A stretch of 64,000 bases of DNA from Candidatus Cloacimonadales bacterium (GCA_963677495.2 CAXXOU010000001.1:736001-800000), one strand, 5' to 3'; numbered from the stretch's first letter, positions 4,713-48,627 are shown. Made by a program: numbers and translations. Notes: generated by a model not told the origin, from the sequence alone.

Positions 4713-5317
4713 TTATCTAATTCCACCGTCTCGCAAGTATCCCCGGTTCGGAAATTGAAATCCTTCTGCACAACTTCCCAATTACCATAATAGTAGGTTA
4801 AGTATTCCTTATAATCTTTGGGGGCGGAATACATCTTCCCATTAAACTCAAGCTGGGTTTTATTATCATAGAAATGCTTAGGTGTTGATTTAAGAACAGG
4901 TCGCTTATCATCTACAGTCCAGTAGTAATTATCATCATCTAATGGAAATTTAATGAATAAATCCATCATACTGATACCTTTGAAGAAGAGAAACTTTCGT
5001 GTCTGGATTCTTAGGATTCTGGGAGTGCCTTTCTTAAAAGGTCCTGAGTCTTTCTTACATCTTCTAATTTTAGAACGGTAACCTGCCATCCAGATCTTCC
5101 ATCGAATTGCGAAAAGCTTCTTCATGTTCACACTTGAAACGTTTAAATCCATGTCGGTGTCCCATGGTAGAAGTCTGTTTTCTCTAACGATTCCGAGCAG
5201 TGTCCCGGCTTCTAAAAGATAGGGAACATTGTTTTTCTCTAAAATAGTTGTAATATCTTTAAGCATTTTAAGGGCAATCTCTAAGTATTTGCCTTGAAGT
5301 TTGACTGTTCCGGCCAT
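4709..5317 (-). CDS. LicD family nucleotidyl/phosphotransferase
   Basis: GTLLGIVRE..LPWDTDMD motif; YLTYYYGNW C-terminal motif. Confidence 0.85.
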   Translation of the reverse strand: MAGTVKLQGKYLEIALKMLKDITTILEKNNVPYLLEAGTLLGIVRENRLLPWDTDMDLNVSSVNMKKLFAIRWKIWMAGYRSKIRRCKKDSGPFKKGTPRILRIQTRKFLFFKGISMMDLFIKFPLDDDNYYWTVDDKRPVLKSTPKHFYDNKTQLEFNGKMYSAPKDYKEYLTYYYGNWEVVQKDFNFRTGDTCETVELDN

Positions 5318-6360
5318 TAGCGTAAGTATCCTTTTCTAAATATACTATGATAAATAATCTGCATCTTGCGGATAAGATTTAAGGGTTTGTGTTTCTTGGG
5401 GTAATCTGCAGGATTAAGCTTTTCAAGCTCATTTACGATTCTCTCTGCAGTTTTACAATCCAGGTAAGGGTTTACCTCTCCCATTGCTACATCTCTTCTC
5501 TTCTTTAGTTCATCCGGATAAGAAAGACAATAATCAATTGCATCTCTTAATTGATTTGGACTGGTAATGTCATGGGCTTTTTGAGTTCTCCCAATTGTCT
5601 TATAAGTGATAACAGGTTTATCTAGTGCAAGGAACTCATAAACAACTGAAGATGTATCTGAAATCATCAGATCTGATAGGTGTAGATATGGTGAAATATC
5701 CTCTCTTGTGATAATTCTTGCTTTAGAACTATCAATGTCTCTAAACTTAGCTATCTGCTCTTGAGGCATTAGTTCATGGAACTTAAGAAACCAATATTCA
5801 TCATCTTGCATTTCGTTATGAATAGTATCCATTAGTTCAGTTGCTGATTCCATAGTAGTACTAAAGGTTGGAGCATAGAGAATTAGTTTCTTGTCCTTTG
5901 GTACATCCTTAACTGCATCTATCAACTCTTGTGGGTAATTTAGAATAAAATCAAGCTTAATCCAACCGGTTTCAATAACATCAAAGTACTTATATTTCTT
6001 TTGCATCTCCAAGAATCTTTCAGTTACATAAGGCCCTGATGTAAGGAAAACATCAAAGAAATGCCTGATTCTGTAGTGTACAGGTTTCTCGACACCAAGC
6101 CCATGAAAAAGCTGTACTTTGATTCCAGGGATACGGAAATCCACAAAGTTACCAGGAGCTAAGACATAGTCGGGATTAAACTCTTTTGCTTCTTGAATTG
6201 TACCTAGTATTTTAACTTCAGGATGCTTTTCATGGATAGCATTTTTAACTCTCGCAGAAGTGTAGAATGCATACTCTCTTCCTGTTTCTTTTAGGTATAT
6301 AACTAATGGAGCAACTATAGATATCGAATACTGTTTGGATAGATAGAAAAGATACTTCAT
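5317..6360 (-). CDS. CDP-glycerol glycerophosphotransferase family (TagB/TagF-like)
   Basis: QLFHG, ILYAPTF, KFHE and MISDTSSVVYEFLALDKPVI motifs. Confidence 0.85.
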   Translation of the reverse strand: MKYLFYLSKQYSISIVAPLVIYLKETGREYAFYTSARVKNAIHEKHPEVKILGTIQEAKEFNPDYVLAPGNFVDFRIPGIKVQLFHGLGVEKPVHYRIRHFFDVFLTSGPYVTERFLEMQKKYKYFDVIETGWIKLDFILNYPQELIDAVKDVPKDKKLILYAPTFSTTMESATELMDTIHNEMQDDEYWFLKFHELMPQEQIAKFRDIDSSKARIITREDISPYLHLSDLMISDTSSVVYEFLALDKPVITYKTIGRTQKAHDITSPNQLRDAIDYCLSYPDELKKRRDVAMGEVNPYLDCKTAERIVNELEKLNPADYPKKHKPLNLIRKMQIIYHSIFRKGYLR

Positions 6361-38681: not shown

Positions 38682-38853
38682 AGGTTTTTAAATTACGAAT
38701 TACTAATTATGAATTACTAATTTATGCCCCAGCATTTAGCATTCAGCATTTGTAATCTTGCATTCAGCATTCAGCATTCAGCATTTGTAATCTTGCATCT
38801 TGCATCTTTCATTTTGCATTTAACTATAGGCTATAGGCTATAAGCTATTAACT
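38682..38853. repeat. Composite heptamer tandem array, copy A
   Basis: Blocks of AATTACG/AATTACT, then CATTCAG/AATCTTG/CATTTGT, then CTATAGG units; direct repeat of 39448-39680. Confidence 0.85.
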
Positions 38854-38891
38854 AAAAAACCCCCGCTCCTCGCAAGAGGAACGGGGTTTTT
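38854..38891 (-). terminator. Intrinsic terminator of the 153-aa gene
   Basis: AAAAACCCC..TCCTC GCAA GAGGA..GGGGTTTTT hairpin next to the stop codon. Confidence 0.8.
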
Positions 38892-38893
38892 GT

Positions 38894-39355
38894 CTAGCTA
38901 CCGTTGTAACTGTTTGTCAGATCATCATACTTACTGATCTTAGGCAGGAAACCATTATCAATGGCATCCTTAACTGTCTGAATCCCGATATCCAAAAGCT
39001 GGATATCAGCAAAGGTAACAGTCTTCAGGTCAATAGTAGGATCATCTTTGTTCACGTTCCACCACATTTTGCTGTAGAGGGCGTAGAATCCAGGATGACG
39101 TTTCTTCTTTCCGAGAACTTCATTTCCATAGCGACGTGTGTAAGTCTTGAGATTGTCAATCCAACCTGAATCGAAACTGTCATAAACAGCTCCCAGGTTT
39201 TCAGCGACAGATCCCATAGTTGCGTTTTGTGTTGTGGCAGCAGGGACAACATAATCTCTACTGAAGCAGATGTAACCTTCATTGAAGGCGGAGTAAACCA
39301 ATTCATCCATCGTTCCTGAGAATGATCTGAATGGCTTCATCATGTTAACTCTCAT
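38894..39355 (-). CDS. Hypothetical protein, paralogue of 45894-46349
   Basis: RBS AAAGGAGATCACA-ATG; shares SG..D.LV, RDYVVPA.T.QN..MG.V..NL, P.IDL.T.T, I.T...AI.N..LP....YD.L with its paralogue. Confidence 0.82.
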   Translation of the reverse strand: MRVNMMKPFRSFSGTMDELVYSAFNEGYICFSRDYVVPAATTQNATMGSVAENLGAVYDSFDSGWIDNLKTYTRRYGNEVLGKKKRHPGFYALYSKMWWNVNKDDPTIDLKTVTFADIQLLDIGIQTVKDAIDNGFLPKISKYDDLTNSYNGS

Positions 39356-39447
39356 TGTGATCTCCTTTTCCTACTTCGCATAAAGCTTCGTAGGACACGT
39401 CCTACCAACGGACGACTTTGTTGTTTTTATTTCCCTAACGCGCGATG

Positions 39448-39680
39448 AGGTTTTAAATTATGAATTAGAAATTAGTAATTAGTAATAAGTATTAAGTAAT
39501 AAATGCTTCAGCATTTAGCATTTTGCATCTTGAATCTTGCATTTGTAATTAAGCATTGAGCATTCAGCATTTTTCATTTAGCATCTTGAATCTTGCATTT
39601 GTAATCTTGAATCTTGCATTTGTAATTTTGCATTTAACTATAGGCTTTAGGCTCTTAGCTATAGGCTAAAAAAACTTCCC
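39448..39680. repeat. Composite heptamer tandem array, copy B
   Basis: Same block order as 38682-38853 with different unit counts. Confidence 0.85.
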
Positions 39681-39703
39681 TCTATTATACGTAGCTTACG
39701 GTT
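39681..39703 (-). promoter_or_regulatory. 23-bp motif (putative promoter or recombination site), left copy
   Basis: Reverse complement AACCGTAAGCTACGTATAATAGA is identical to 45190-45212 and contains TATAAT. Confidence 0.7.
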
Positions 39704-39803
39704 CTTGGATTTCTGCTCATATTTAGTGTTTTTTAATGCAAAATACCAGTTTTTATATTGACACCTATACATGATTTCCACTTAGGTTATTGTAAGGTAC
39801 ATT

Positions 39804-41093
39804 ATGAAATTCAAGATCACCGATTATATTAACGACTATGGTAAAGTTATGGATTTTAACAAAAATAAGTCCGTATATATGCACCAATGGTATCCTTTTG
39901 TTGAAGGGTATTCAGAGCAGTTCATCAATTCTATATTAGATGAACAGGAGAGTATACCAAAAGTTTGTTTGGATCCATTCAGTGGTAGTGGGACAACATC
40001 ATTAGAGCTTCAAAGACGAAAGATAAAATGTTACTCCTTTGAGGTTAATCCATTTTTACATCTTTTATCAAAAGTGAAGTTAGAAACAAGATATTGTTAT
40101 ACCGAATTCTCAGAAATTGTGAGTAAGTTAACTGATGAACTATCCATTGCTATTAACTCCGATATTGATTTTCCTCTAAAGTCTAAGAAATTCATTGTGA
40201 ACGATGGAGTATGTAAAAAATGGAATTACAGTAAAGAGGTTTACTCTATATTACTTATAATTAAAAATACAATAGATAAAATAGAAGATAAAAAATATAG
40301 AGAATTGTTAACCATCAGTTTAGCGTCAATTGTACTACCTGTTAGTAACTTATATAGAAACGGTAAATGCTTATCGTATAAAAAGAATTGGGAAGAAAAA
40401 TCATTAACAAGACAAGAAGTCTTGGACATGTTCTTATCAAACATCAAAGAAAAGATATTACCCGATGTATTAAAACTAAATCGATATGATGATACTGAAT
40501 TGTTTTCCAATAGAAGCAATTGCTTTTTTGGGGATGTTAGAATTAAACTTGATGACAAAGTAGATGACAATTCTATTGACCTTGTTATTACATCTCCTCC
40601 ATATCTAAACTCAAGAGATTATACTGATATTTATATGTTAGAATTATGGGTTTTAGGCTTTGTAAACTCATACGAAGATGTTAGAAGTTTACGCAAATCA
40701 ACACTAAGATCTCATGTTCAAGTAAAATGGCAAGACACAATTGCTCCTCAAAACAAAAAATTGCATACAGTATTAAAAGAATTAGAAACTTATAGTAGTA
40801 GTTTTTGGAATAACAGCATACCGGATATGATAAGTGGATATTTTGATGATATCAGGCATTTATTCTCTATATTATATAGAAAATTGAAACCTGATGGAAA
40901 GATATACTTTAATGTAGCAAATTCAGCTTATTATGGTATTGTGATTAAAGTTGATGAGATATGTGCAGAACTTGCAGAACAAGAAGGTTTTACATGTACA
41001 GAGATTAGAACTGCACGCTGGTTGAAGACAAGTGGACAACAAAAAGATGTTGTGGAACGACTTCGTGAGAGTGTTGTTGTACTTACTAAATAA
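39804..41093 (+). CDS. DNA amino-methyltransferase (probably N4-cytosine; motif I precedes motif IV)
   Basis: HQWYPFVEGYS, LDPFSGSGTT (SAM binding) and VITSPPYLN (motif IV); LRESVV C-terminus. Confidence 0.9.
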   Translation: MKFKITDYINDYGKVMDFNKNKSVYMHQWYPFVEGYSEQFINSILDEQESIPKVCLDPFSGSGTTSLELQRRKIKCYSFEVNPFLHLLSKVKLETRYCYTEFSEIVSKLTDELSIAINSDIDFPLKSKKFIVNDGVCKKWNYSKEVYSILLIIKNTIDKIEDKKYRELLTISLASIVLPVSNLYRNGKCLSYKKNWEEKSLTRQEVLDMFLSNIKEKILPDVLKLNRYDDTELFSNRSNCFFGDVRIKLDDKVDDNSIDLVITSPPYLNSRDYTDIYMLELWVLGFVNSYEDVRSLRKSTLRSHVQVKWQDTIAPQNKKLHTVLKELETYSSSFWNNSIPDMISGYFDDIRHLFSILYRKLKPDGKIYFNVANSAYYGIVIKVDEICAELAEQEGFTCTEIRTARWLKTSGQQKDVVERLRESVVVLTK

Positions 41094-41095
41094 TA

Positions 41096-42145
41096 TTACT
41101 CATCTACATTAAACATTCTACATCCAGAAAAAAAGTTAGTGTTAATGTGTTCATAATCTTTATTAATGATTAAATCATTTATCTTATTCTCAATTGCCTT
41201 GGATTCATCCTCTTTTTCAATTCTTGCATCGAACACTATCAAATAACCACAGCCATCTTTTTTATCGAGGATTTTTATACCCATTGATAAGTATCTGAAT
41301 ATTTGTTCTAAACCATCCTCTACTTTGTCTATTTTGTATGTATAAACTCCTTTTGTATTAGGGTCCCCACATGATTTTCCCATCCATTTAATTTCTATTA
41401 ATGCAAATCTAGATGAGTCCTCAAGTAAGATATCATACCTTGTTTTATCTATAAGTTCTCCCTCTTTTCCTACTTGCATACAACTCTCACGATGAATGAA
41501 TTCTTTCAAGCTTCTTTGAAATAAATACTCAGGTGCTGACCTGAGAAGATTTTTTATCTTTTTATTGGACTCCTTCTTTTCCCGGGTTGTCTGAAAGAAA
41601 AAAAGAGATATTTCCTTTCTATCTAAAGATTTTTGGTATTCATCAAACAATTGGTCAATCTGATCCATAGAATACCGTTTAGTATAAGAATGATACAAAG
41701 AAGGATTATCAAAAATACTTGTTGACACAATCGAAACACCTTCGTAGTATACATTGAATGAATGAGAAGTTTGATCGTTTCTTTCATGGAAGAGAACATA
41801 GCAATTTGAAGCGTCAGTACTTAAACCTTGTATGTTAGAACATGTGCATTGTAAATTCGTTTGATGAATGATGTTTAATGAATTATCTAAGCTTAGACAA
41901 TTAAAGTGAAAAGACTGCTTTATAATCCTAGCAAACTTGACTTGACTGTTATCTAGAATAAAACCATTTTTCTTTATGCTAGAAAGATTTATAACTAATA
42001 AAAATATCCTTTTATCGTCACGCATCCCATCCAATGGCATCAATATCTGATAAAACAAAAGTTGATAGTCTTCTGCAAGTTCTTTATTCAAATTACATAA
42101 TTTTTTGTCTCGAAGACTTCCGAATAAACTTTTATCTATTTTCAC
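41096..42145 (-). CDS. Hypothetical protein with C-terminal PD-(D/E)xK restriction-endonuclease-like domain
   Basis: PEYLFQ..E....RYDILL..ALIEIKW..Q...Y..GYLIVFDAR; GTG start overlaps the upstream TGA. Confidence 0.62.
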   Translation of the reverse strand: MKIDKSLFGSLRDKKLCNLNKELAEDYQLLFYQILMPLDGMRDDKRIFLLVINLSSIKKNGFILDNSQVKFARIIKQSFHFNCLSLDNSLNIIHQTNLQCTCSNIQGLSTDASNCYVLFHERNDQTSHSFNVYYEGVSIVSTSIFDNPSLYHSYTKRYSMDQIDQLFDEYQKSLDRKEISLFFFQTTREKKESNKKIKNLLRSAPEYLFQRSLKEFIHRESCMQVGKEGELIDKTRYDILLEDSSRFALIEIKWMGKSCGDPNTKGVYTYKIDKVEDGLEQIFRYLSMGIKILDKKDGCGYLIVFDARIEKEDESKAIENKINDLIINKDYEHINTNFFSGCRMFNVDE

Positions 42146-42798
42146 TCATCCCCCAAAACAATAGTTTCAAAAATATATCCGAAATAACCAATTAAATAGT
42201 CTTTCATGGTAGTTTCACTACCTACATCACTGGGAAACTGATTATCATACTCTTTCTTAAATTCACCCATGAATTTGATTGTAGCATTATGTGGATTCTG
42301 TGTATCTAAGTTCGACACATTTGAAGACAGTTTTTCTTTGAACTCTTCATCCCTATATATAAACCTAAACAATTTAGTATACCCATAAATACTTTGAAGT
42401 GTTACAGACAAATCTATCCACTCAATTATACTTGTTAACAATGGATCTTTGAGTAGTTTCGACTCAACAACTGAAACTCCTTCATGTGTTAGAATTGGTT
42501 TTTCAACATCATCAATATATCCATTTAGAAGCAATCTATCTAAAGCTTCATTGATTAGATTGCATTGAGGGCCCGTTGAATAAGTAACAAATTCATAAAG
42601 TTTAATTAAGTTAACAAACTCTGGATCATCTAGTGATTTACTATAGAAATGTGATAGTATAATCAACTGATACATGGACCAGTTAATATATTTCTTATTA
42701 ATTTCAATCCAACCAAGTTTCTTTGTATAATACAAAAGAATCAATAAATGTAATGCTGATACAGTTTCTTTGCTTTGTGTCTCGTTTTTATTGTTCAT
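42142..42798 (-). CDS. Hypothetical protein (possible winged-helix middle component)
   Basis: RBS GGAG before ATG 42798; EALDRLLLNGYI..LTHEG wHTH-like segment; overlaps both neighbours. Confidence 0.65.
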   Translation of the reverse strand: MNNKNETQSKETVSALHLLILLYYTKKLGWIEINKKYINWSMYQLIILSHFYSKSLDDPEFVNLIKLYEFVTYSTGPQCNLINEALDRLLLNGYIDDVEKPILTHEGVSVVESKLLKDPLLTSIIEWIDLSVTLQSIYGYTKLFRFIYRDEEFKEKLSSNVSNLDTQNPHNATIKFMGEFKKEYDNQFPSDVGSETTMKDYLIGYFGYIFETIVLGDE

Positions 42799-44863
42799 CA
42801 ATATTCTCCATGAAGGTTTCTCTAGCATCATGTAACGCTTTACTATTTATTTGTGTGATTGATTGACGTCCATAGAACATCATATCAAGTGTCTTTATTC
42901 TGTGTTTAGGTAGTTTCTTTTTTATGTGATTAAGAAAATCACTATTTCCATAATTAAAAGTAACAATCAAACTATTGCTATGTCGCAAGAAATGAATTAG
43001 AGATTCCGCTGCTTGTTGAGAATATGCTATGTCTAAACTAGAATCTGGAGTCTCAAAAATAAACATGGTAGGGTTGACGTAGAATACATCAAGAAAGCTT
43101 AGTCTAAATGACTGTTCCATAAAAAATGATTGGGATTCAGATAATTCATCACTTGAGTTGCGTGGGATTTCATCAATTACTGGAATGTAAGACTCATAAT
43201 TTGGGTTGTAAACACTTTTATCAAATTTCAAATAGCAACTATACGGTAAGAATTTCTCCGCATAAGTTGTAAACAATTTTGATAAATCCTCTGTTAATCT
43301 AATTTTCTTGTCTCTAATATCTTCGTTTAGTTTGTCCAGTTTAGCTTGAGTTTCTTCCTTCTTAGTAATATAGAGGTTTCTTTCTTTCTCGATTTTCTTT
43401 ATTCGCTCAACAATGTAATTGTTATCAGAGATTTCTCCAAATGAACCATCGTTTATCCTAGAATGTTCAAGATTTCTAATTTCAAGGTTTAACTTGAATA
43501 ATCTTGTCTCTATATCCTTTGTCTGGTTATCTAAGGCTTCAAGTTGTTTTTTTGTTTGTTGCTTTTTGTCACGGGTTGCAACAATATTCTGATCTAATTT
43601 TGCTTTATTTTGTATCAGTAATTCAATATTTTTGGGTGCTACTTCATATTGCTTTTGTATTACTGAATCACAATAGAAACAGTTCATCAAATGCTTTTGC
43701 TGAGTAGCCAAGCTTTCATCGATATCTTGCATACAGAAAGGACATAATTTTTTTTCTTCGATATACTTTAAATAGGTGTGGTACCTCGGATCTAATTTAC
43801 TGAATATTTTACGGTCTCGTTCTGACCGATATTTTTGAATTTGAGCTTCTATTTCTCCACATTCAATCATTGTTTTTTCTAACTCAGAAGATAAAATTTT
43901 TCTCTGATTTTCCAATATATTCCTCTTCCCATCAATTTCTTTACTTTTTTCAATATAAGAAAGCTTTTTTTCTCTTAATTCTGAAACATTTGCAGATGAA
44001 TTAGTTCCCGTTTTGTTCATGTCTTCTAATAGTTTTCTAAGTGGTTTTCTATCTTCTGATAGATGTCTTATTCTACTATCAAAATACTTCTTGTCATGAC
44101 TATGTTTCTCAATCTCTATAGAAATATCAGTTAAGAGATATAATGTTAAATATTCTTGAATTGTAAGATCTGCGTTGTTTTTTTCTTCCCAAAAAATAGT
44201 GGATCTAGATTCATCAAAAACGAAAATGTTAATAATGAAGAAAATAAAAGCATCAAAACTAGGTAAATTTGTTAAGTCTTTAACACATTCTTCGTATTTA
44301 TACTGAATTGATTCTCTAAATCTTCTGACATCAAAAGAATCTTTAGAAGTTTTCTCATCATAGCCATTAGTAGAGTTAGTTCCATTGAACTTGTTAAAAA
44401 GTTCGTCATAATCTGCTTGTGGCAGAACTTCTCCATTTTCATTTTGAGAACTATTTTTTTGAATAAGTCTAAATTCAAGGAGCTTATGTTCATATAGACT
44501 TCTTACAACTTCTAGTTGAGAGTCTCCGATTCTAAATGTAACTAACACTTTAGCAGAAGGCTTGATTCCATATGCTTTCATCCTATTTTTGAAATAATCC
44601 CCATGTAAAGCTCTTCGTTTTATAATTCTCTTTTCTTTATAAGTCCTTTCGAATCTAGTATGAGTTCTGTATCCACCAATCAACGCATATTTGAGTATAT
44701 TTATGAAGGTCGTTTTCCCCATGCCATTTCCACCAATGACAAGGTTAATCCCATCAATAAAGTCATAATGAATGTCTTCTTTATAAAGGCTGTAATCAAT
44801 TATTGAAATGCTTTTTAGTGTAGGGAAAATTATTCTGTTATTAAAGACAACATCATTATCCAT
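42788..44863 (-). CDS. SMC/Rad50-like ABC-ATPase with coiled coils and CxxC hook motifs
   Basis: Walker A GGNGMGKTT; FVFDE; coiled coils around CPFC..CFYC; signature LSESQ; Walker B/D-loop FIFETPDSSLD. Confidence 0.88.
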   Translation of the reverse strand: MDNDVVFNNRIIFPTLKSISIIDYSLYKEDIHYDFIDGINLVIGGNGMGKTTFINILKYALIGGYRTHTRFERTYKEKRIIKRRALHGDYFKNRMKAYGIKPSAKVLVTFRIGDSQLEVVRSLYEHKLLEFRLIQKNSSQNENGEVLPQADYDELFNKFNGTNSTNGYDEKTSKDSFDVRRFRESIQYKYEECVKDLTNLPSFDAFIFFIINIFVFDESRSTIFWEEKNNADLTIQEYLTLYLLTDISIEIEKHSHDKKYFDSRIRHLSEDRKPLRKLLEDMNKTGTNSSANVSELREKKLSYIEKSKEIDGKRNILENQRKILSSELEKTMIECGEIEAQIQKYRSERDRKIFSKLDPRYHTYLKYIEEKKLCPFCMQDIDESLATQQKHLMNCFYCDSVIQKQYEVAPKNIELLIQNKAKLDQNIVATRDKKQQTKKQLEALDNQTKDIETRLFKLNLEIRNLEHSRINDGSFGEISDNNYIVERIKKIEKERNLYITKKEETQAKLDKLNEDIRDKKIRLTEDLSKLFTTYAEKFLPYSCYLKFDKSVYNPNYESYIPVIDEIPRNSSDELSESQSFFMEQSFRLSFLDVFYVNPTMFIFETPDSSLDIAYSQQAAESLIHFLRHSNSLIVTFNYGNSDFLNHIKKKLPKHRIKTLDMMFYGRQSITQINSKALHDARETFMENIDEQ

Positions 44864-45189
44864 TATACCCCCTGTATGACATTATAATCAATGATATATG
44901 AAAAATAATTAATAAGTAGATTATGTCAATCTATTTATGTGATTTAATAACTCTTCCCCCACTCACCCCACTATCATAATTCCCAACAAACACCCCACAA
45001 ATTTCTGTGAGTCTCTTGAGGGTCACTGGGGCTGGTTGATAAGTGAGTCTCTCGAAATTGGGTAGTTAGAGATAATTTTTTCATATTTATTATGATAGGG
45101 CATAGAGACCGCATATAATCAATGATTAGATGCATTTGTTATCTTTCAAATCTTTAAAAAATTGTGCTTTTATATACCGATTTATGCAA

Positions 45190-45212
45190 AACCGTAAGCT
45201 ACGTATAATAGA
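45190..45212 (+). promoter_or_regulatory. 23-bp motif (putative promoter or recombination site), right copy
   Basis: AACCGTAAGCTACGTATAATAGA, perfect inverted copy of 39681-39703. Confidence 0.7.
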
Positions 45213-45223
45213 AGGACATTTAT

Positions 45224-45866
45224 TTTGGGCGACCCCATTAGGGTCGAGATTTGTATTACTCGGTTCCATGGGCTGAAGCCCATGGCTATTATAATGTTGC
45301 CCCTTCAGGGCATGAATACAATATTTGTGTAATTGCTCCATGGGCTAAGACCTTGGCTATTATAAGTTTGCCCCTTCAGGGCATGAATAAGATATTTGTG
45401 TAACTGCTCCATGGGCTAAGACCTTGGCTATTATAATGTTGCCCCTTCAGGGCATGAATACGATATTTGTGTAATTGTACCATGGGCTAAGCCCATGGCT
45501 ATTATAATGTTGCCCCTTCAGGGCATGAATACGATATTTGTGTAATTGTACCATGGGCTGAAGCCCATGGCTATTATAATGTTTCCCCTTCAGGGCATGA
45601 ATACGATATTTGTGTAATTGTTCCATGAGCTGAAGTCCATGGCAATATAAGGTTGTCCCGTTTAGACAAGAATGGGGAATAGATTATAACTATAAAATAA
45701 TTCCATATTAAGAACCCTAAATGGGTTCCATAACAATAGCCATAGGTTTCAACCTATGGAATAGAGATACCCCACACCTTAACCCTAAAAGGGTTATATA
45801 ATAATAGCCATAGGTTTCAACCTATGGGACAGGAACGCTCCCCATCCCAACCCTAAAGGGGTTGCC
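45224..45866. repeat. REP/REPIN cluster 1: six tandem 71-72-bp palindromic units followed by inverted units
   Basis: CCATGGGCTGAAGCCCATGG-CTATTATAATGTTG-CCCCTTCAGGGC units at 45266, 45338, 45409, 45480, 45551, 45623; inverted units at 45713-45866. Confidence 0.9.
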
Positions 45867-45893
45867 TTTCAAATAAAAATAAAGGAGATCACA

Positions 45894-46349
45894 ATGAAAA
45901 TTAAACTCGCATGTTGGATTAAATCGGTATCAGGTAAACTGGACGATTTAGTGTTTTGTGTTGATAAAAAGACCGGTAATGTGTGGGTACGTGATTATGT
46001 AGTACCTGCAAGAACAGCTCAGAATACCTTAATGGGATTGGTTTCCAAGAATTTGGCTGTTTATAAGCAAAATGTTAGCGCAGGTTATTTCTCTGATTTA
46101 GAGGATTATTCAGATAAATACAACCTAGCGACGCTAGGTCAACCGGGTAGATTGAATAGTGCTTCTACCTTAAACAAGATGATGTATGCGTTGAAGAGAG
46201 CATATCCCGCAATAGATTTAGTTACAATTACCCCTCAATATGTGGTTGATCATAGTTTACCGATTCGTACAATCGCGGAAGCAATTGAAAATAATCTTCT
46301 CCCTCAAGTGCCACGATATGATGAGTTAGTACATCTCATTGTATCATAA
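45894..46349 (+). CDS. Hypothetical protein, paralogue of 38894-39355
   Basis: RBS AAAGGAGATCACA-ATG identical to the paralogue's; shared motifs along the whole length. Confidence 0.82.
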   Translation: MKIKLACWIKSVSGKLDDLVFCVDKKTGNVWVRDYVVPARTAQNTLMGLVSKNLAVYKQNVSAGYFSDLEDYSDKYNLATLGQPGRLNSASTLNKMMYALKRAYPAIDLVTITPQYVVDHSLPIRTIAEAIENNLLPQVPRYDELVHLIVS

Positions 46350-46376
46350 ATGTACTTGGCTTTCATATACTCCGAC

Positions 46377-46410
46377 AAAATGCCCGGTTTGTTCCGGGCA
46401 TTTGTTTTTT
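46377..46410 (+). terminator. Intrinsic terminator of the 151-aa gene
   Basis: AAATGCCCGG-TTTGTT-CCGGGCATTT hairpin followed by GTTTTTT. Confidence 0.8.
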
Positions 46411-47030
46411 GGGGCGACCCCGTTAGGGTCGGGGATTTATTTTATACGTTTCCATGGGCTGAAGCCACATGGCTATTATAATGTTGTCCCTTTATACAAG
46501 AATTGGGTTGATCTGATTGTATCCATGGGTTGAAGTCAGGGTTATTGTAACGTTGTTCCGGGCATTTGTTTCTTGGGCGACCCCATTAGGGTCGGGGTTT
46601 CGTAAAATTCGTATCCATGGGCTGAAGTCACATGGCTATTATAATGTTGTCCCTTTAGGACAAGAATTGTGTTGATCCGATTGTATCCATGAGTTGAAGT
46701 CAGGGTTATTGTAATGTTGTTCCGGGCATTTGTTTCTTGGGCGACCCCATTAGGGTCGGGGTTTCGTAAAATTCGTATCCATGGGCTGAAGCCACATGGC
46801 TATTATAATGTTGCCACTTTAGGGCAAGAATTGTAGTTGATCTGATTGTATCCATGAGTTGAATCCATGGAAATTATAAGATTGTCCAGTTAGGGCATGA
46901 ACGTGGAATTTGTTGTAATTAAATATATCAATCCGTATAATGAACCCTGAATGGGTTCCATAATAATAGCCATAGGTTTCAACCTATGGAATTGATGCCC
47001 CCAGTCCTTCTACCCTAAAGGGGTAGCCCA
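46389..47030. repeat. REP/REPIN cluster 2: three 164-bp higher-order units plus an inverted unit
   Basis: TTGTTCCGGGCATTTG at 46389, 46553, 46717, each followed by GGGCGACCCC.TTAGGGTCG and CCATGGGCTGAAG; inverted unit at 46943-47030. Confidence 0.88.
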
Positions 47031-47125: not shown

Positions 47126-47569
47126 ATGTCTACATATACGCAAATATTATATCACATTGTATTTAGCACAAAAGGACGTTATCGAACGTTGGAGCTATCG
47201 AAAAGAGAGGAAATTCTCAAATATGCCTGGGCAGTCTTGAAGAATAACAAATCATATGTTTACCAAATGAACATGATGGATGATCATTTTCATATTCTTT
47301 GTTCGATCCATCCACAGAAAAACCTATCGGATATGGTGAAGCTCATTAAGGCTTCGGTAGGGAATTGGATTAGGGATAACAATGTTTGCCCAAGATTTGC
47401 CGGTTGGCAAAACGGATATGGAGCATTTACAGTTGGGTGGAGTAACCGGGAACATTTAATCAAATATATAAAGGATCAGCAACAGCATCATAAGCGATTT
47501 ACATATGAGGTAGAATATCAGAAATTGTTGGATGATGCAGGGGTTGAATATAATAAAGAATATTTGTAA
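47126..47569 (+). mobile_element. tnpA: IS200/IS605-superfamily Y1 HUH transposase, REP-associated (RAYT-like)
   Basis: YHIVFSTK.R, HUH motif DHFHIL, WQNGYGAFTV and catalytic YIKDQ..HH; REP clusters on both sides; no tnpB. Confidence 0.9.
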
Positions 47570-47571
47570 TT

Positions 47572-47990
47572 TGGACGACCCCGTTAGGGTCGGGATTTCG
47601 TATGATCCGTTCCATGGGCTGAAGCCCATGGCTATTATAAGGTTGTCCCTTTAGGACAAGAATGCATTTTGGTTGGATTATGTTCCATGGGTTGAAACCA
47701 CATGGCTATTATAAGGTTGCCCTGTTAGGGCAAGAACACGATTTTTGTTAGATCTGTTTACGTGGGTGATGTTTATGGCTATAATAATGTTGCCTTGTTA
47801 GGGCTGGAAAATTGATCTGATGTTATTATATCGCATTTATTATAAAATAGAACGTTTATAATAAGATTTTCCAGGTAGGAATTCGCATGATCCCCACATC
47901 TTAACCCTGAAGGGGTTATTCTTATAATAGCCATAGGTTTCAACCTATGGAATTGATATCCCAAGACCTCAACCCTAAAGGGGTTGCCCA
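47572..47990. repeat. REP/REPIN cluster 3
   Basis: Begins TGGACGACCCCGTTAGGGTCG and ends CAACCCTAAAGGGGTTGCCCA (inverted termini); internal CCATGGG..CCCATGG hairpins. Confidence 0.88.
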
Positions 47991-48048: not shown

Positions 48049-48627
48049 CTATTCTATCTCTTCAATTAGCAGGTCAAAGTCATCATCCTTTTCAGGTTGA
48101 TATTCAATTATTGCCTTCAATAAGATAGTTTTCTTAATGTGCTTTGCAAGGATTGGACAATACTTTTCCAGTTTCTTTAGTGCACGTTTTATGGCAGTAT
48201 AGACCATATGATAAGTTTGAATAACAAGCTTATCCATGTTTGGTTCTTGATGAGACCATTTCCTAAGAAAGGCTTCAGTGTTAGCGATTTGATCCATTTC
48301 GAGATCATCGAAACGGGATGTATCATCTAGAGCTTGTTTCTTATACGTCCTTAGCTTTGTGAGTAGGTCAGCATTTTCTATCTGCTCCTCTCTTGCTAAG
48401 TCATAACATCTTGTAACATAATCAGCTTCCGTATCACTTGATACAGAATGGTGGTTGTTATGGGATTGGGAGTGCTCAAGGATAAAGAACAAGCGTTGAA
48501 GCTGGGTAGGTTGATTTGGATGAAGTAGAAGTTCTTCAATATACTTGAAACCATTAGTCTTCTTAATCGGTTTATCTTGTTCTTGCGTTATCCATGCATC
48601 ACGGGTAATCTTCAGGTCGTAAAACAT
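48049..48627 (-). CDS. Hypothetical protein (possible stand-alone regulatory helical domain)
   Basis: RBS GAGGT; GFKYIEELLLHPNQ and VYTAIKRALKKL...P.LAKH...I resemble the C-terminal domain of some large ATPase regulators (from memory). Confidence 0.6.
   Translation of the reverse strand: MFYDLKITRDAWITQEQDKPIKKTNGFKYIEELLLHPNQPTQLQRLFFILEHSQSHNNHHSVSSDTEADYVTRCYDLAREEQIENADLLTKLRTYKKQALDDTSRFDDLEMDQIANTEAFLRKWSHQEPNMDKLVIQTYHMVYTAIKRALKKLEKYCPILAKHIKKTILLKAIIEYQPEKDDDFDLLIEEIE

Follow-up and report, generated by a model that had tools for sequence, protein, structure and literature searches.

Two small genes of an undescribed family appear to bracket exchangeable anti-phage genes in a Candidatus Cloacimonadales bacterium. 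The stretch analyzed here is 64,000 nt long (GCA_963677495.2, CAXXOU010000001.1:736001-800000); it is referred to below as the window, and positions are those of the whole window unless another locus is named. The two genes lie at 38894-39355 on the minus strand and at 45894-46349 on the plus strand, and they point away from each other. We propose, with a probability of roughly 55%, that they are the bookends of a defense-gene slot, in which two co-regulated outward transcription units form the frame, the cargo is exchanged via this conserved frame, and the repeat arrays found at both genes are passengers. A previous sequence-only reading had described a module of motif, repeat array, ribosome-binding site (RBS), gene, terminator, and second array; the parts of that module hold up, but the divergent layout around exchangeable defense cargo had been missed. 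Five such divergent pairs were identified in the genome to which the window belongs (G000; 3.4 Mb, 37% GC), each consisting of one A-type and one B-type gene of the family located 4.5 to 8.2 kb apart. The pair at 38894-46349 is called the window pair, the other four are called pairs 2 to 5, and comparison is made throughout with G001, a complete genome of the same genus.

The anatomy of the two bookends had largely been pointed out before and is borne out by recounting. The genes are diverged paralogues (BLASTP, 32% identity over 148 aa, E 9e-28), and their cis-signals are more conserved than the proteins, with 23 of 23 and 17 of 17 nt identical against 32% of the amino acids. The 23-bp motif AACCGTAAGCTACGTATAATAGA, which comprises TATAAT and a short palindrome CGTAAGCTACG, is an exact match on both the B side (39681-39703, minus strand; none expected) and the A side (45190-45212, plus strand), and these are the two matches in the window at up to three mismatches, against none in 100 shuffles. 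With the bookend genes pointing apart, the motif occurs as a perfect inverted repeat, and 5.5 kb containing other genes lie between its two copies. The 17-nt RBS and start, AAAGGAGATCACAATGA, is likewise identical at the B-type gene (39352-39368, minus strand) and the A-type gene (45881-45897, plus strand), and BLAST also found a 13-nt core of it. The spacers between motif and ATG are long, 325 nt at the minus gene and 681 nt at the plus gene. The former holds the leader copy of a heptad composite element (39450-39680, minus strand), which begins with GGGAAG and seven T residues directly 3' of the motif, and the whole of the latter is filled by a cluster of hairpins of the repetitive extragenic palindromic (REP) type (45213-45880, plus strand). 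The open frames encode 153 aa in the B-type gene (one of seven such paralogues; C-terminus ...DDLTNSYNGS) and 151 aa in the A-type gene (one of 15). Both are followed by intrinsic terminators called by a terminator scan, at 38861-38886 on the minus strand (11 pairs, 8 GC, then a T run) and at 46378-46403 on the plus strand (10 pairs and a T run; the annotated element extends to 46410), and beyond each terminator the array type of the leader recurs, as a trailer copy of the heptad composite (38684-38856, minus strand) and as about three tandem REP-type units of ~180 bp (46411-47030, plus strand). Across the window, 17 terminator-like sites were found, against 3.4 +/- 2.2 in shuffles. Sequence contigs from four DNA runs of one sample agree with the assembly at this locus, the only joints having short sides of 21-32 nt and lying in repeats; neither a cargo inversion nor an empty site was seen in these contigs.

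When the genes between the two motifs are considered, a link to defense becomes apparent. A type II N6/N4 DNA methyltransferase (39804-41093, plus strand; Pfam N6_N4_Mtase, 2.1e-13; PADLOC MTase_II, 1.3e-62) is followed by a three-gene operon of open reading frames (ORFs) encoding 349, 229, and 691 aa (41096-44863, minus strand). The 691-aa protein is an SMC/Rad50-like ABC ATPase resembling LmuB of the Lamassu system (PADLOC LmuB, 8e-21), with weak Pfam matches to AAA_23 and SMC_N. Compared with Lamassu, an LmuB-like ATPase is present, whereas counterparts of LmuA and LmuC were not matched among the 349-aa and 229-aa proteins, which gave no clear match and, in PADLOC, no Lmu match. At 29-31%, the GC content of this cargo is below that of the flanks (36-40%) and of the whole genome (37%). 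The remaining slots of G000 hold other genes: pair 4 encloses a complete Lamassu system (PADLOC: LmuA, 1e-115; LmuC, 3e-50; LmuB, 6e-147), pair 3 a C5 methyltransferase (2.8e-80) with HATPase proteins (PADLOC/Pfam), pair 2 uncharacterized genes with a PIN protein, and pair 5 uncharacterized genes with a protein carrying a type IX secretion system (T9SS) tail. PADLOC matches occur in three of the five slots.

A swap of the cargo is seen in the orthologous module of G001. Here identity is 88.8% over 554 nt for the B gene and its proximal leader, 75% in nucleotide sequence for the A gene, and 73% for the gene following the A gene; the slot itself contains a PDC-S06 ATPase (5e-67) and an HD-CE/HATPase protein, and the window from 39712 to 44956 shows no similarity to G001. 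Toward the cargo, conservation stops 9 bp past the motif at the B gene; at the A gene it continues for 234 bp past the motif, through a non-coding region (44956-45189, plus strand; 80% identity over 260 columns). The outer neighbors of the G001 module match G000 C4:394-399 kb and C4:93-95 kb and not the neighbors in the window; as breaks in synteny between G000 and G001 occur every few kb throughout, this changed neighborhood is weak evidence.

The inverted arrangement of the motif is also found, in altered form, at other pairs. Six of the seven pairs examined in G000 and G001 have their own pair-specific inner inverted repeat, which measures 23 nt (100% identity) in the window pair, 26 nt (96%) in pair 3, 92 nt (90%) in pair 4, 56 nt (96%) in pair 5, 27 nt (89%) in the orthologous pair of G001, and 44 nt (86%) in the second pair of G001; none was found at pair 2. 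The 23-bp motif is absent from pairs 2 to 5, and in pairs 3 to 5 these repeats occupy the equivalent place. As partner proteins are only ~30% identical, the inner repeats would be kept alike by selection for joint control or by conversion.

Where the 23-bp motif itself occurs (up to three mismatches), it lies upstream of a family gene and on that gene's strand, in four of four cases in G000 and in four of four in G001. The earlier idea that the motif belongs to the family is therefore only partly upheld, since all eight copies in the two genomes sit at family genes but 18 of the 22 members in G000 lack it (counts out of 22 refer to the 21 intact genes and one gene with an internal stop). The distances from motif to ATG at the eight genes are 35, 69, 113, 276, 308, 325, 681, and 1054 nt, and the filling is, as proposed, interchangeable, consisting of heptads, REPs, or an unrelated insert; the compact copies, at 35 and 69 nt, resemble ordinary promoter-leader-RBS units. 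In G000 the exact motif and the GGAGATCACAATG site identify the same set of three genes. In G001 both motif and RBS of the A gene have drifted (the motif by three mismatches) and the B-side motif is exact. Sharing of the motif does not track the protein tree, with carriers being 32-53% identical and closer B-type paralogues being without it. We infer that the 23-bp motif may represent the outward promoter core of the family genes.

Another family gene shows a 227-bp insert exactly at its promoter core (L045:5456-5760; G000 C4:1447456-1447760), flanked by a 12-bp direct duplication TATAGTAGAGGG of that core, and its G001 orthologue has an uninterrupted 35-nt leader. Together with the variable distance between motif and ATG, this insert suggests that the site just 3' of the promoter core accepts insertions.

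A third gene, here called C, accompanies the pairs and could provide their regulation. In the window it lies at 48049-48627 on the minus strand, encodes 192 aa, and is convergent with the A-type gene. The C family has seven paralogues in G000 of about 192-200 aa, and each of the five pairs has one of them beside its A gene; besides that of the window, those listed are C4:774532-775721, C4:1465056-1465565, C4:1491765-1492349, C3:297737-298261, and C4:1047341-1047922. All three C copies of G001 follow an A-type gene, the orthologue of the window copy being 71% identical in amino acids, and the family is nearly genus-restricted (5 of 41 genomes). Alignment of the C model (pLDDT, or predicted local distance difference test, 69) with VIA-align returned OmpR/PhoB/ToxR DNA-binding domains in all of rows 1 to 11 (Z 7.9-6.8, root-mean-square deviation [rmsd] 2.6-3.6, 82-95 residues; best row, Z 7.9, rmsd 2.9, 95 residues), and Foldseek lists the OmpR-type family weakly (E 0.24 and above). 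The putative DNA-binding fold of C would therein be similar to these regulators, the model matching their DNA-binding domain over most of its length. Unlike them, C has no receiver domain, its domain is split by a helical insertion of ~75 residues, and none of the seven paralogues matches Pfam Trans_reg_C at E up to 5. Judging from the model, C is probably a DNA-binding regulator with a split winged-helix fold of the OmpR/ToxR type. Regulators of this kind are known to have phased direct-repeat sites, such as the pho-box, at a spacing similar to 11 bp, and the 11-bp word arrays found upstream of A-type genes (described below) resemble OmpR/PhoB-type tandem sites in spacing.

Placed together, these elements allow a mechanism to be hypothesized for the framed slot. 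Each bookend would be its own small transcription unit, leading from the motif as promoter core through a 5' leader and a strong GGAG ribosome site to the ~150-aa ORF and the intrinsic terminator. The short palindrome in the motif probably seats a regulator, for which the C gene would be the best candidate, and as the two promoters of a pair are near-identical, both bookend genes should be switched together. The block between the motifs would be foreign, low-GC anti-phage DNA that lineages exchange with one another, and homologous recombination within the conserved bookend modules would be the simplest route. In this reading, insertions would be tolerated at two positions, immediately 3' of the promoter core and immediately 3' of the terminator, at which two genome-wide non-coding repeats, the heptad composites and the REP clusters, were inserted and amplified.

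A number of observations weigh against this proposal. No acceptable -35 hexamer accompanies the TATAAT of the motif, and the promoter scan did not call it; that scan found no excess of promoter-like sites in the window (44, against 39.5 +/- 7.4). The 325- and 681-nt leaders hold terminator-like hairpins, and transcription from the motif may consequently not reach the gene; promoter activity, leader, and co-regulation are all inferred, and no RNA run was found to contain this DNA. The winged-helix assignment of C combines a pLDDT of 69 with a Z score of 7.9, under the tool's caution line of 8, and no Pfam match. As to the cargo, that of pairs 2 and 5 gave no PADLOC match, the swap is seen in two genomes only, and the different neighborhood of the module in G001 is also consistent with mobility. 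Finally, only 10 of the 22 family genes are paired and the 12 unpaired genes of G000 lie among housekeeping genes, so bookending is not the only setting of the family and cannot be its sole role.

The ~150-aa family itself is indeed undescribed, as the sequence-only reading had supposed, with no match in Pfam, NCBIfam, PHROG, or PADLOC and no sequence or fold match in the PDB. Within G000 there are 24 protein matches, namely the 21 intact genes, the gene with an internal stop, and two fragments, and the family falls into two subfamilies of 15 A-type genes (150-152 aa) and seven B-type genes (153 aa, 62-81% mutual identity), with a GGAG-type ribosome site at every gene. A profile search of 1.84 billion proteins yielded 360 matching cluster representatives; within the order, the family is present in 28 of the 41 genomes and 17 of the 26 genera searched, with up to 22 matches per genome, and in the ESM Atlas the nearest relatives are Cloacimonadota clusters without names. 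Among viral contigs no relative of either protein was found in a search that could reveal close relatives only. Of two metagenome searches, the first scan gave nothing and the second gave two 1.5-kb contigs with B-type genes. On one of these (L134:1086-1507), a C-like gene lies downstream of the B-type gene on the same strand; on the other (L135:560-680), the B-type gene has a heptad array in its leader and lies 3' of the end of an HNH-type gene.

Structure prediction, which had been suggested as a check, was carried out with AlphaFold2 (AF2). The model of the A-type protein (pLDDT 84.5) consists of a small beta meander at the N terminus and, after it, five helices, and is without a match to a known fold: Foldseek against the PDB and BFVD gave no match at E 0.001 or better, and a sequence-profile search of the PDB gave 0 matches at E 10. 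The best VIA-align rows are ribbon-helix-helix DNA binders and are weak (Z 3.0-4.1 over 43-49 residues); they include omega repressor, a binder of heptad repeats. As the invariant positions of the family are G, Y, L, T, and A, none of them of a catalytic type, our guess from sequence is that the ~150-aa proteins have a binding or regulatory role rather than being enzymes.

The heptad composite of the minus gene takes up ~225 nt of the 325-nt leader and recurs in full 3' of the terminator, as had been noticed before. Its trailer copy scored as a lag-7 array and could be aligned both to the copy in the leader and to the trailers of two further B-type genes; in gene sense it consists of a T run followed by TAGC-type, ATGC-type, and TAATT-type heptads and a terminal TTTAAAAACC. 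The composite has a conserved 5' end, G-rich, then a T run, then AGC heptads. A regular expression for this junction has five matches in the genome, all of them at family loci and on the gene's strand (three after B-gene terminators and two in leaders), and the window leader is a sixth case seen by alignment. The G-rich 3' arm and T run of the B-gene terminator double as the 5' boundary of the heptad element according to the same expression. The mimicry of a terminator arm just 3' of the motif is accordingly real and recurs at other loci; it arises because the heptad element brings its own conserved 5' end to both sites.

To what extent the heptads belong to the family can be judged from their distribution. 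Among the 41 lag-7 arrays of G000, 20 lie near family genes, that is, within 1.5 kb, a territory of 2.2% of the genome, and control lags of 5, 6, 8, 9, 10, and 13 gave no array near family genes and lag 12 gave one. An array precedes 41% of the family genes (9 of 22) but 2.5% of gene-like ORFs (57 of 2323), so unrelated genes are not flanked equally often. A near array is found at 10 of the 22 family genes (six of seven B-type and four of 15 A-type genes), on both sides at three of them; scoring of arrays across the family is thereby divided, with 12 of 22 members lacking one within 1.5 kb but with strong enrichment beside family genes. Heptad arrays built from quite different units adjoin family genes at 8 of 27 loci in other genera. 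In G013, the 44.5 kb surrounding 10 family genes contain 21 arrays and 200 kb of background DNA contain 20, and at one locus the same heptad stands both upstream and downstream of the family gene; in G014 there are 3 arrays in 36 kb around family genes against 7 in 240 kb of background. The B-gene leader of G001 contains a short array and there is no trailer array.

What does not survive is the notion of the arrays as a private component of the module, since the other 21 of the 41 arrays in G000 lie far from family genes, before unrelated genes, and a relative has the background just given of 20 in 200 kb. The heptad arrays are better described as lineage-wide intergenic repeats that are enriched here, and in the reading favored here they are not part of a repeat-RNA machine, as once suggested for this locus, but genome-wide repeats enriched at such loci. 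The background loci L098-L107 of G013, which belongs to another family of the order, have heptad arrays of many unit types at a density of roughly one per 10 kb, far above that of G000.

Heptamer repeats are known from cyanobacteria as STRR (short tandemly repeated repetitive) sequences. Among described repeats, TAACTGA heptamers are intergenic, occur in Beggiatoaceae, Cyanobacteria, and Bacteroidetes, and are suspected to bind protein (PMC4679880). The arrays found here are similar in being tandem 7-nt units in non-coding DNA between promoter and start codon, but differ in that TAGC-, ATGC-, and TAATT-type units are mixed in one ordered composite, that the arrays are longer, and that they have a conserved 5' end which is a terminator arm and are enriched beside one gene family.

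At the plus gene, the hairpins filling the 681-nt leader and those 3' of the terminator are of the same REP type, in line with the original description. The 3' arm and T run of the A-gene terminator form part of the ~180-bp tandem unit, with copies near 46553 and 46720. Clusters of REP units, or bacterial interspersed mosaic elements (BIMEs), that go with REP-associated tyrosine transposases (RAYTs) consist of short palindromic units in intergenic DNA, are often located directly behind terminators, and neighbor a Y1 transposase gene of the IS200 type. Similarly, the palindromic clusters of the window adjoin terminators and flank on both sides an IS200-like Y1 gene that is RAYT-like (47126-47569, plus strand; Pfam Y1_Tnp, 3.3e-23). 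Unlike in REP/RAYT systems, this REP type is low-copy (9 to 21 matches per pattern, both strands) and concentrated at three family loci, and the transposase scores 30.6 bits for NCBIfam REP_Tyr_transpos, under the cut-off of 80, against 66.3 bits for transpos_IS200 (cut-off 55).

The distribution of phased arrays could also be taken to mean that the ~150-aa proteins bind the arrays beside their own genes, heptads in the case of B-type and 11-bp words in the case of A-type proteins, with paralogues and words having co-diversified; this would sharpen the repeat-RNA/protein idea of the sequence-only reading. A word array consists of four to five direct copies of a locus-specific 6-7-nt word at exact 11-bp spacing, often closed by an inverted copy (for example, L029 ~5400-5470 and L037 ~5270-5340), and such an array, with a word of its own in each case, was found in the 1.5 kb upstream of 14 of 15 A-type genes, against 1 of 7 B-type genes and a lag-11 background of 405 of 2323 gene-like ORFs (17.4%). 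The A gene of the window is the sole A-type exception, having no lag-11 array detected upstream. Binding of this kind would fit with the limited word classes among the 317 lag-11 arrays of G000 (79 six-mer cores, a few of them dominant), the heptad arrays near six of seven B-type genes, those with other units at 8 of 27 loci in other genera together with the two-sided case in G013, and the ribbon-helix-helix rows with omega repressor. We nonetheless regard it as unlikely, as the fold rows are weak (Z 3.1-4.1) and Foldseek returned nothing, the 23-bp motif is out of step with the protein tree, array content differs between orthologues (the B gene of G001), and the arrays outnumber the family and are mostly elsewhere (297 of 317 lag-11 and 21 of 41 lag-7 arrays, besides the G013 background). 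An extended version, which we hold to be quite improbable, would make A, B, and C genes a dedicated slot-keeping system, in which C reads the pair-specific repeats, the ~150-aa proteins bind the phased 7-nt and 11-bp arrays, and the resulting nucleoprotein frame marks, regulates, and perhaps catalyzes cassette exchange; if true, it would constitute a chromosomal cassette-exchange platform unrelated to integrons and would supply a role for the phased word arrays that these genomes contain by the hundreds.

It could alternatively be speculated that something mobile has been observed, be it the cargo together with its inverted repeats or the complete C-A-cargo-B module, with the 23-bp repeats acting as terminal or recombination sites that carry outward promoters. 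The pair-specific inverted repeats bracketing the cargo in six of seven pairs would be accommodated in this way, as would the 227-bp insert with its 12-bp duplication at a promoter core and the position of the orthologous G001 module between other neighbors, at synteny breakpoints, although with synteny so generally broken a new neighborhood counts for little. Pair 4 (L031, G000 C4:1493001-1505725) has its C and A genes separated by inserted elements, an IS21 pair and an IS110 transposase, and close to the end of the contig its B gene is followed by a gene for a tyrosine recombinase. We consider mobility of this sort an unlikely explanation of the window, where the four ORFs between the repeats are, unlike in a transposon or insertion sequence (IS), a methyltransferase, an ATPase, and two proteins without assigned function. 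No transposase or integrase was found between the repeats, nor in the window from 18 to 64 kb save the IS200-like gene. There is also no direct target duplication outside the repeats, the outside bases forming a weak inverted repeat; the motif is present upstream of unpaired family genes that have no partner copy; and conservation with G001 runs 234 bp past the A-side motif into the supposed element. That nothing is organized here, and that fast-evolving small genes merely lie in repeat-rich intergenic DNA with the shared motif and RBS left over from recent gene conversion, seems to us very doubtful. The genome is certainly rich in repeats (317 lag-11 arrays, REP clusters, and IS elements), unpaired members do lie among housekeeping genes, and drift of the A-side motif and RBS in G001 is what would be expected if their identity in G000 reflected recent conversion. 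Against this stand the A/B/C arrangement common to five pairs, with two more pairs in G001, the defense cargo in three of five slots, the location of all eight motif copies at family genes, the strong array enrichments, and the persistence of the family in 17 of 26 genera searched.

The framed defense slot that we favor finds its closest known arrangement, by analogy, in the core defense hotspots (cDHS) of Pseudomonas aeruginosa. In cDHS1 and cDHS2, conserved marker genes flank a hypervariable block of lower GC that is rich in anti-phage systems, and exchange through recombination in the conserved flanks has been suggested (PMC10250203). Likewise, the flanks described here are conserved between the two genomes compared, the defense cargo differs, and its GC is low. 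Unlike in the hotspots, the chromosomal position differs between G000 and G001, a difference of limited weight given the fragmented synteny. The flanks of the hotspots are unrelated single-copy core genes in one fixed place, whereas here they are divergent paralogues of one multi-copy family. Further differences are the five slots in the one genome G000, each (except pair 2) with its own inner inverted promoter repeats, the companion C gene, and the phased arrays accompanying A-type genes. A likeness to integron cassettes can also be drawn, as exchangeable cargo without a promoter sits beside a promoter that is fixed, and what the recombination sites conserve is their form and not their sequence. 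In contrast to integrons, there is no integron integrase, with no Phage_integrase match among the ORFs of the window from 18 to 64 kb and a recombinase gene close to pair 4 alone; the repeats are inverted promoter cores and not attC hairpins after each cassette; and the cargo consists of whole operons in either orientation. A literature search on defense islands of Cloacimonadota found nothing on this arrangement.

Defense hotspots are usually defined by core genes that flank them by chance, whereas the flanks seen here are a dedicated multi-copy family of paralogues. A single genome has five such arrangements, and it comes from an uncultured phylum that is common in anaerobic digesters. Should the bookends regulate, insulate, or exchange the slot, this would be a new way to organize a mobile pool of immune genes. 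Even otherwise, divergent family pairs offer a practical beacon for new defense systems in Cloacimonadota, and two of the five slots hold only uncharacterized genes. The analysis moreover separates the parts of the module (motif, RBS, terminator, and C gene) from its passengers, the heptad and REP arrays, and ties the 11-bp word arrays of this genome to one gene class.

Several REP units of the window score as the Rfam family Acido-Lenti-1, with 37.1 bits at 45266-45312 against a gathering score of 37, and further scoring units lie at 45480-45525, 45551-45582, and 47612-47658 (plus strand). Acido-Lenti-1 is listed as a candidate RNA of Acidobacteria and Lentisphaerae (PMC2864571). From the sequences of these units, this candidate small RNA family may in part consist of REP-type DNA repeats. 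A conserved leader RNA was considered for the bookend genes and rejected, as the proximal leaders of paralogues are unrelated and Rfam matches only REP units.

Two general promoter rules were likewise discarded. A -10 hexamer with AGAG immediately after it fits just 6 of 22 upstream regions, and the looser word TAGAG[AG]G, in spite of a roughly 8-fold enrichment on the sense strand, occurs upstream of only 10 of 22 genes. The possibility that the motif is a coding remnant of a former upstream family gene was dropped, as it came down to a single alignment match of 8 of 9, possibly due to chance. In that alignment, the last codons of two B-type genes (CCTATAATGG; L029:10000-10060 and L031:11060-11120) resemble CGTATAAT of the motif (window 39681-39692), and in the same two genes the next terminator arm and T run resemble the start of the window leader; this may be chance or the trace of a former tandem gene.

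Among the other pairs, pair 2 (L029, G000 C4:773001-788000) lies directly upstream of dnaN-recF, and DnaA-box-like palindromes are present upstream of several A-type genes. Just 5' of the B-gene RBS in the window there is a 25-nt imperfect hairpin (39371-39395, minus strand), and its counterpart in G001 (L084 ~4905-4930, minus strand) is the reverse complement at 23 of 25 positions, as if flipped in place.

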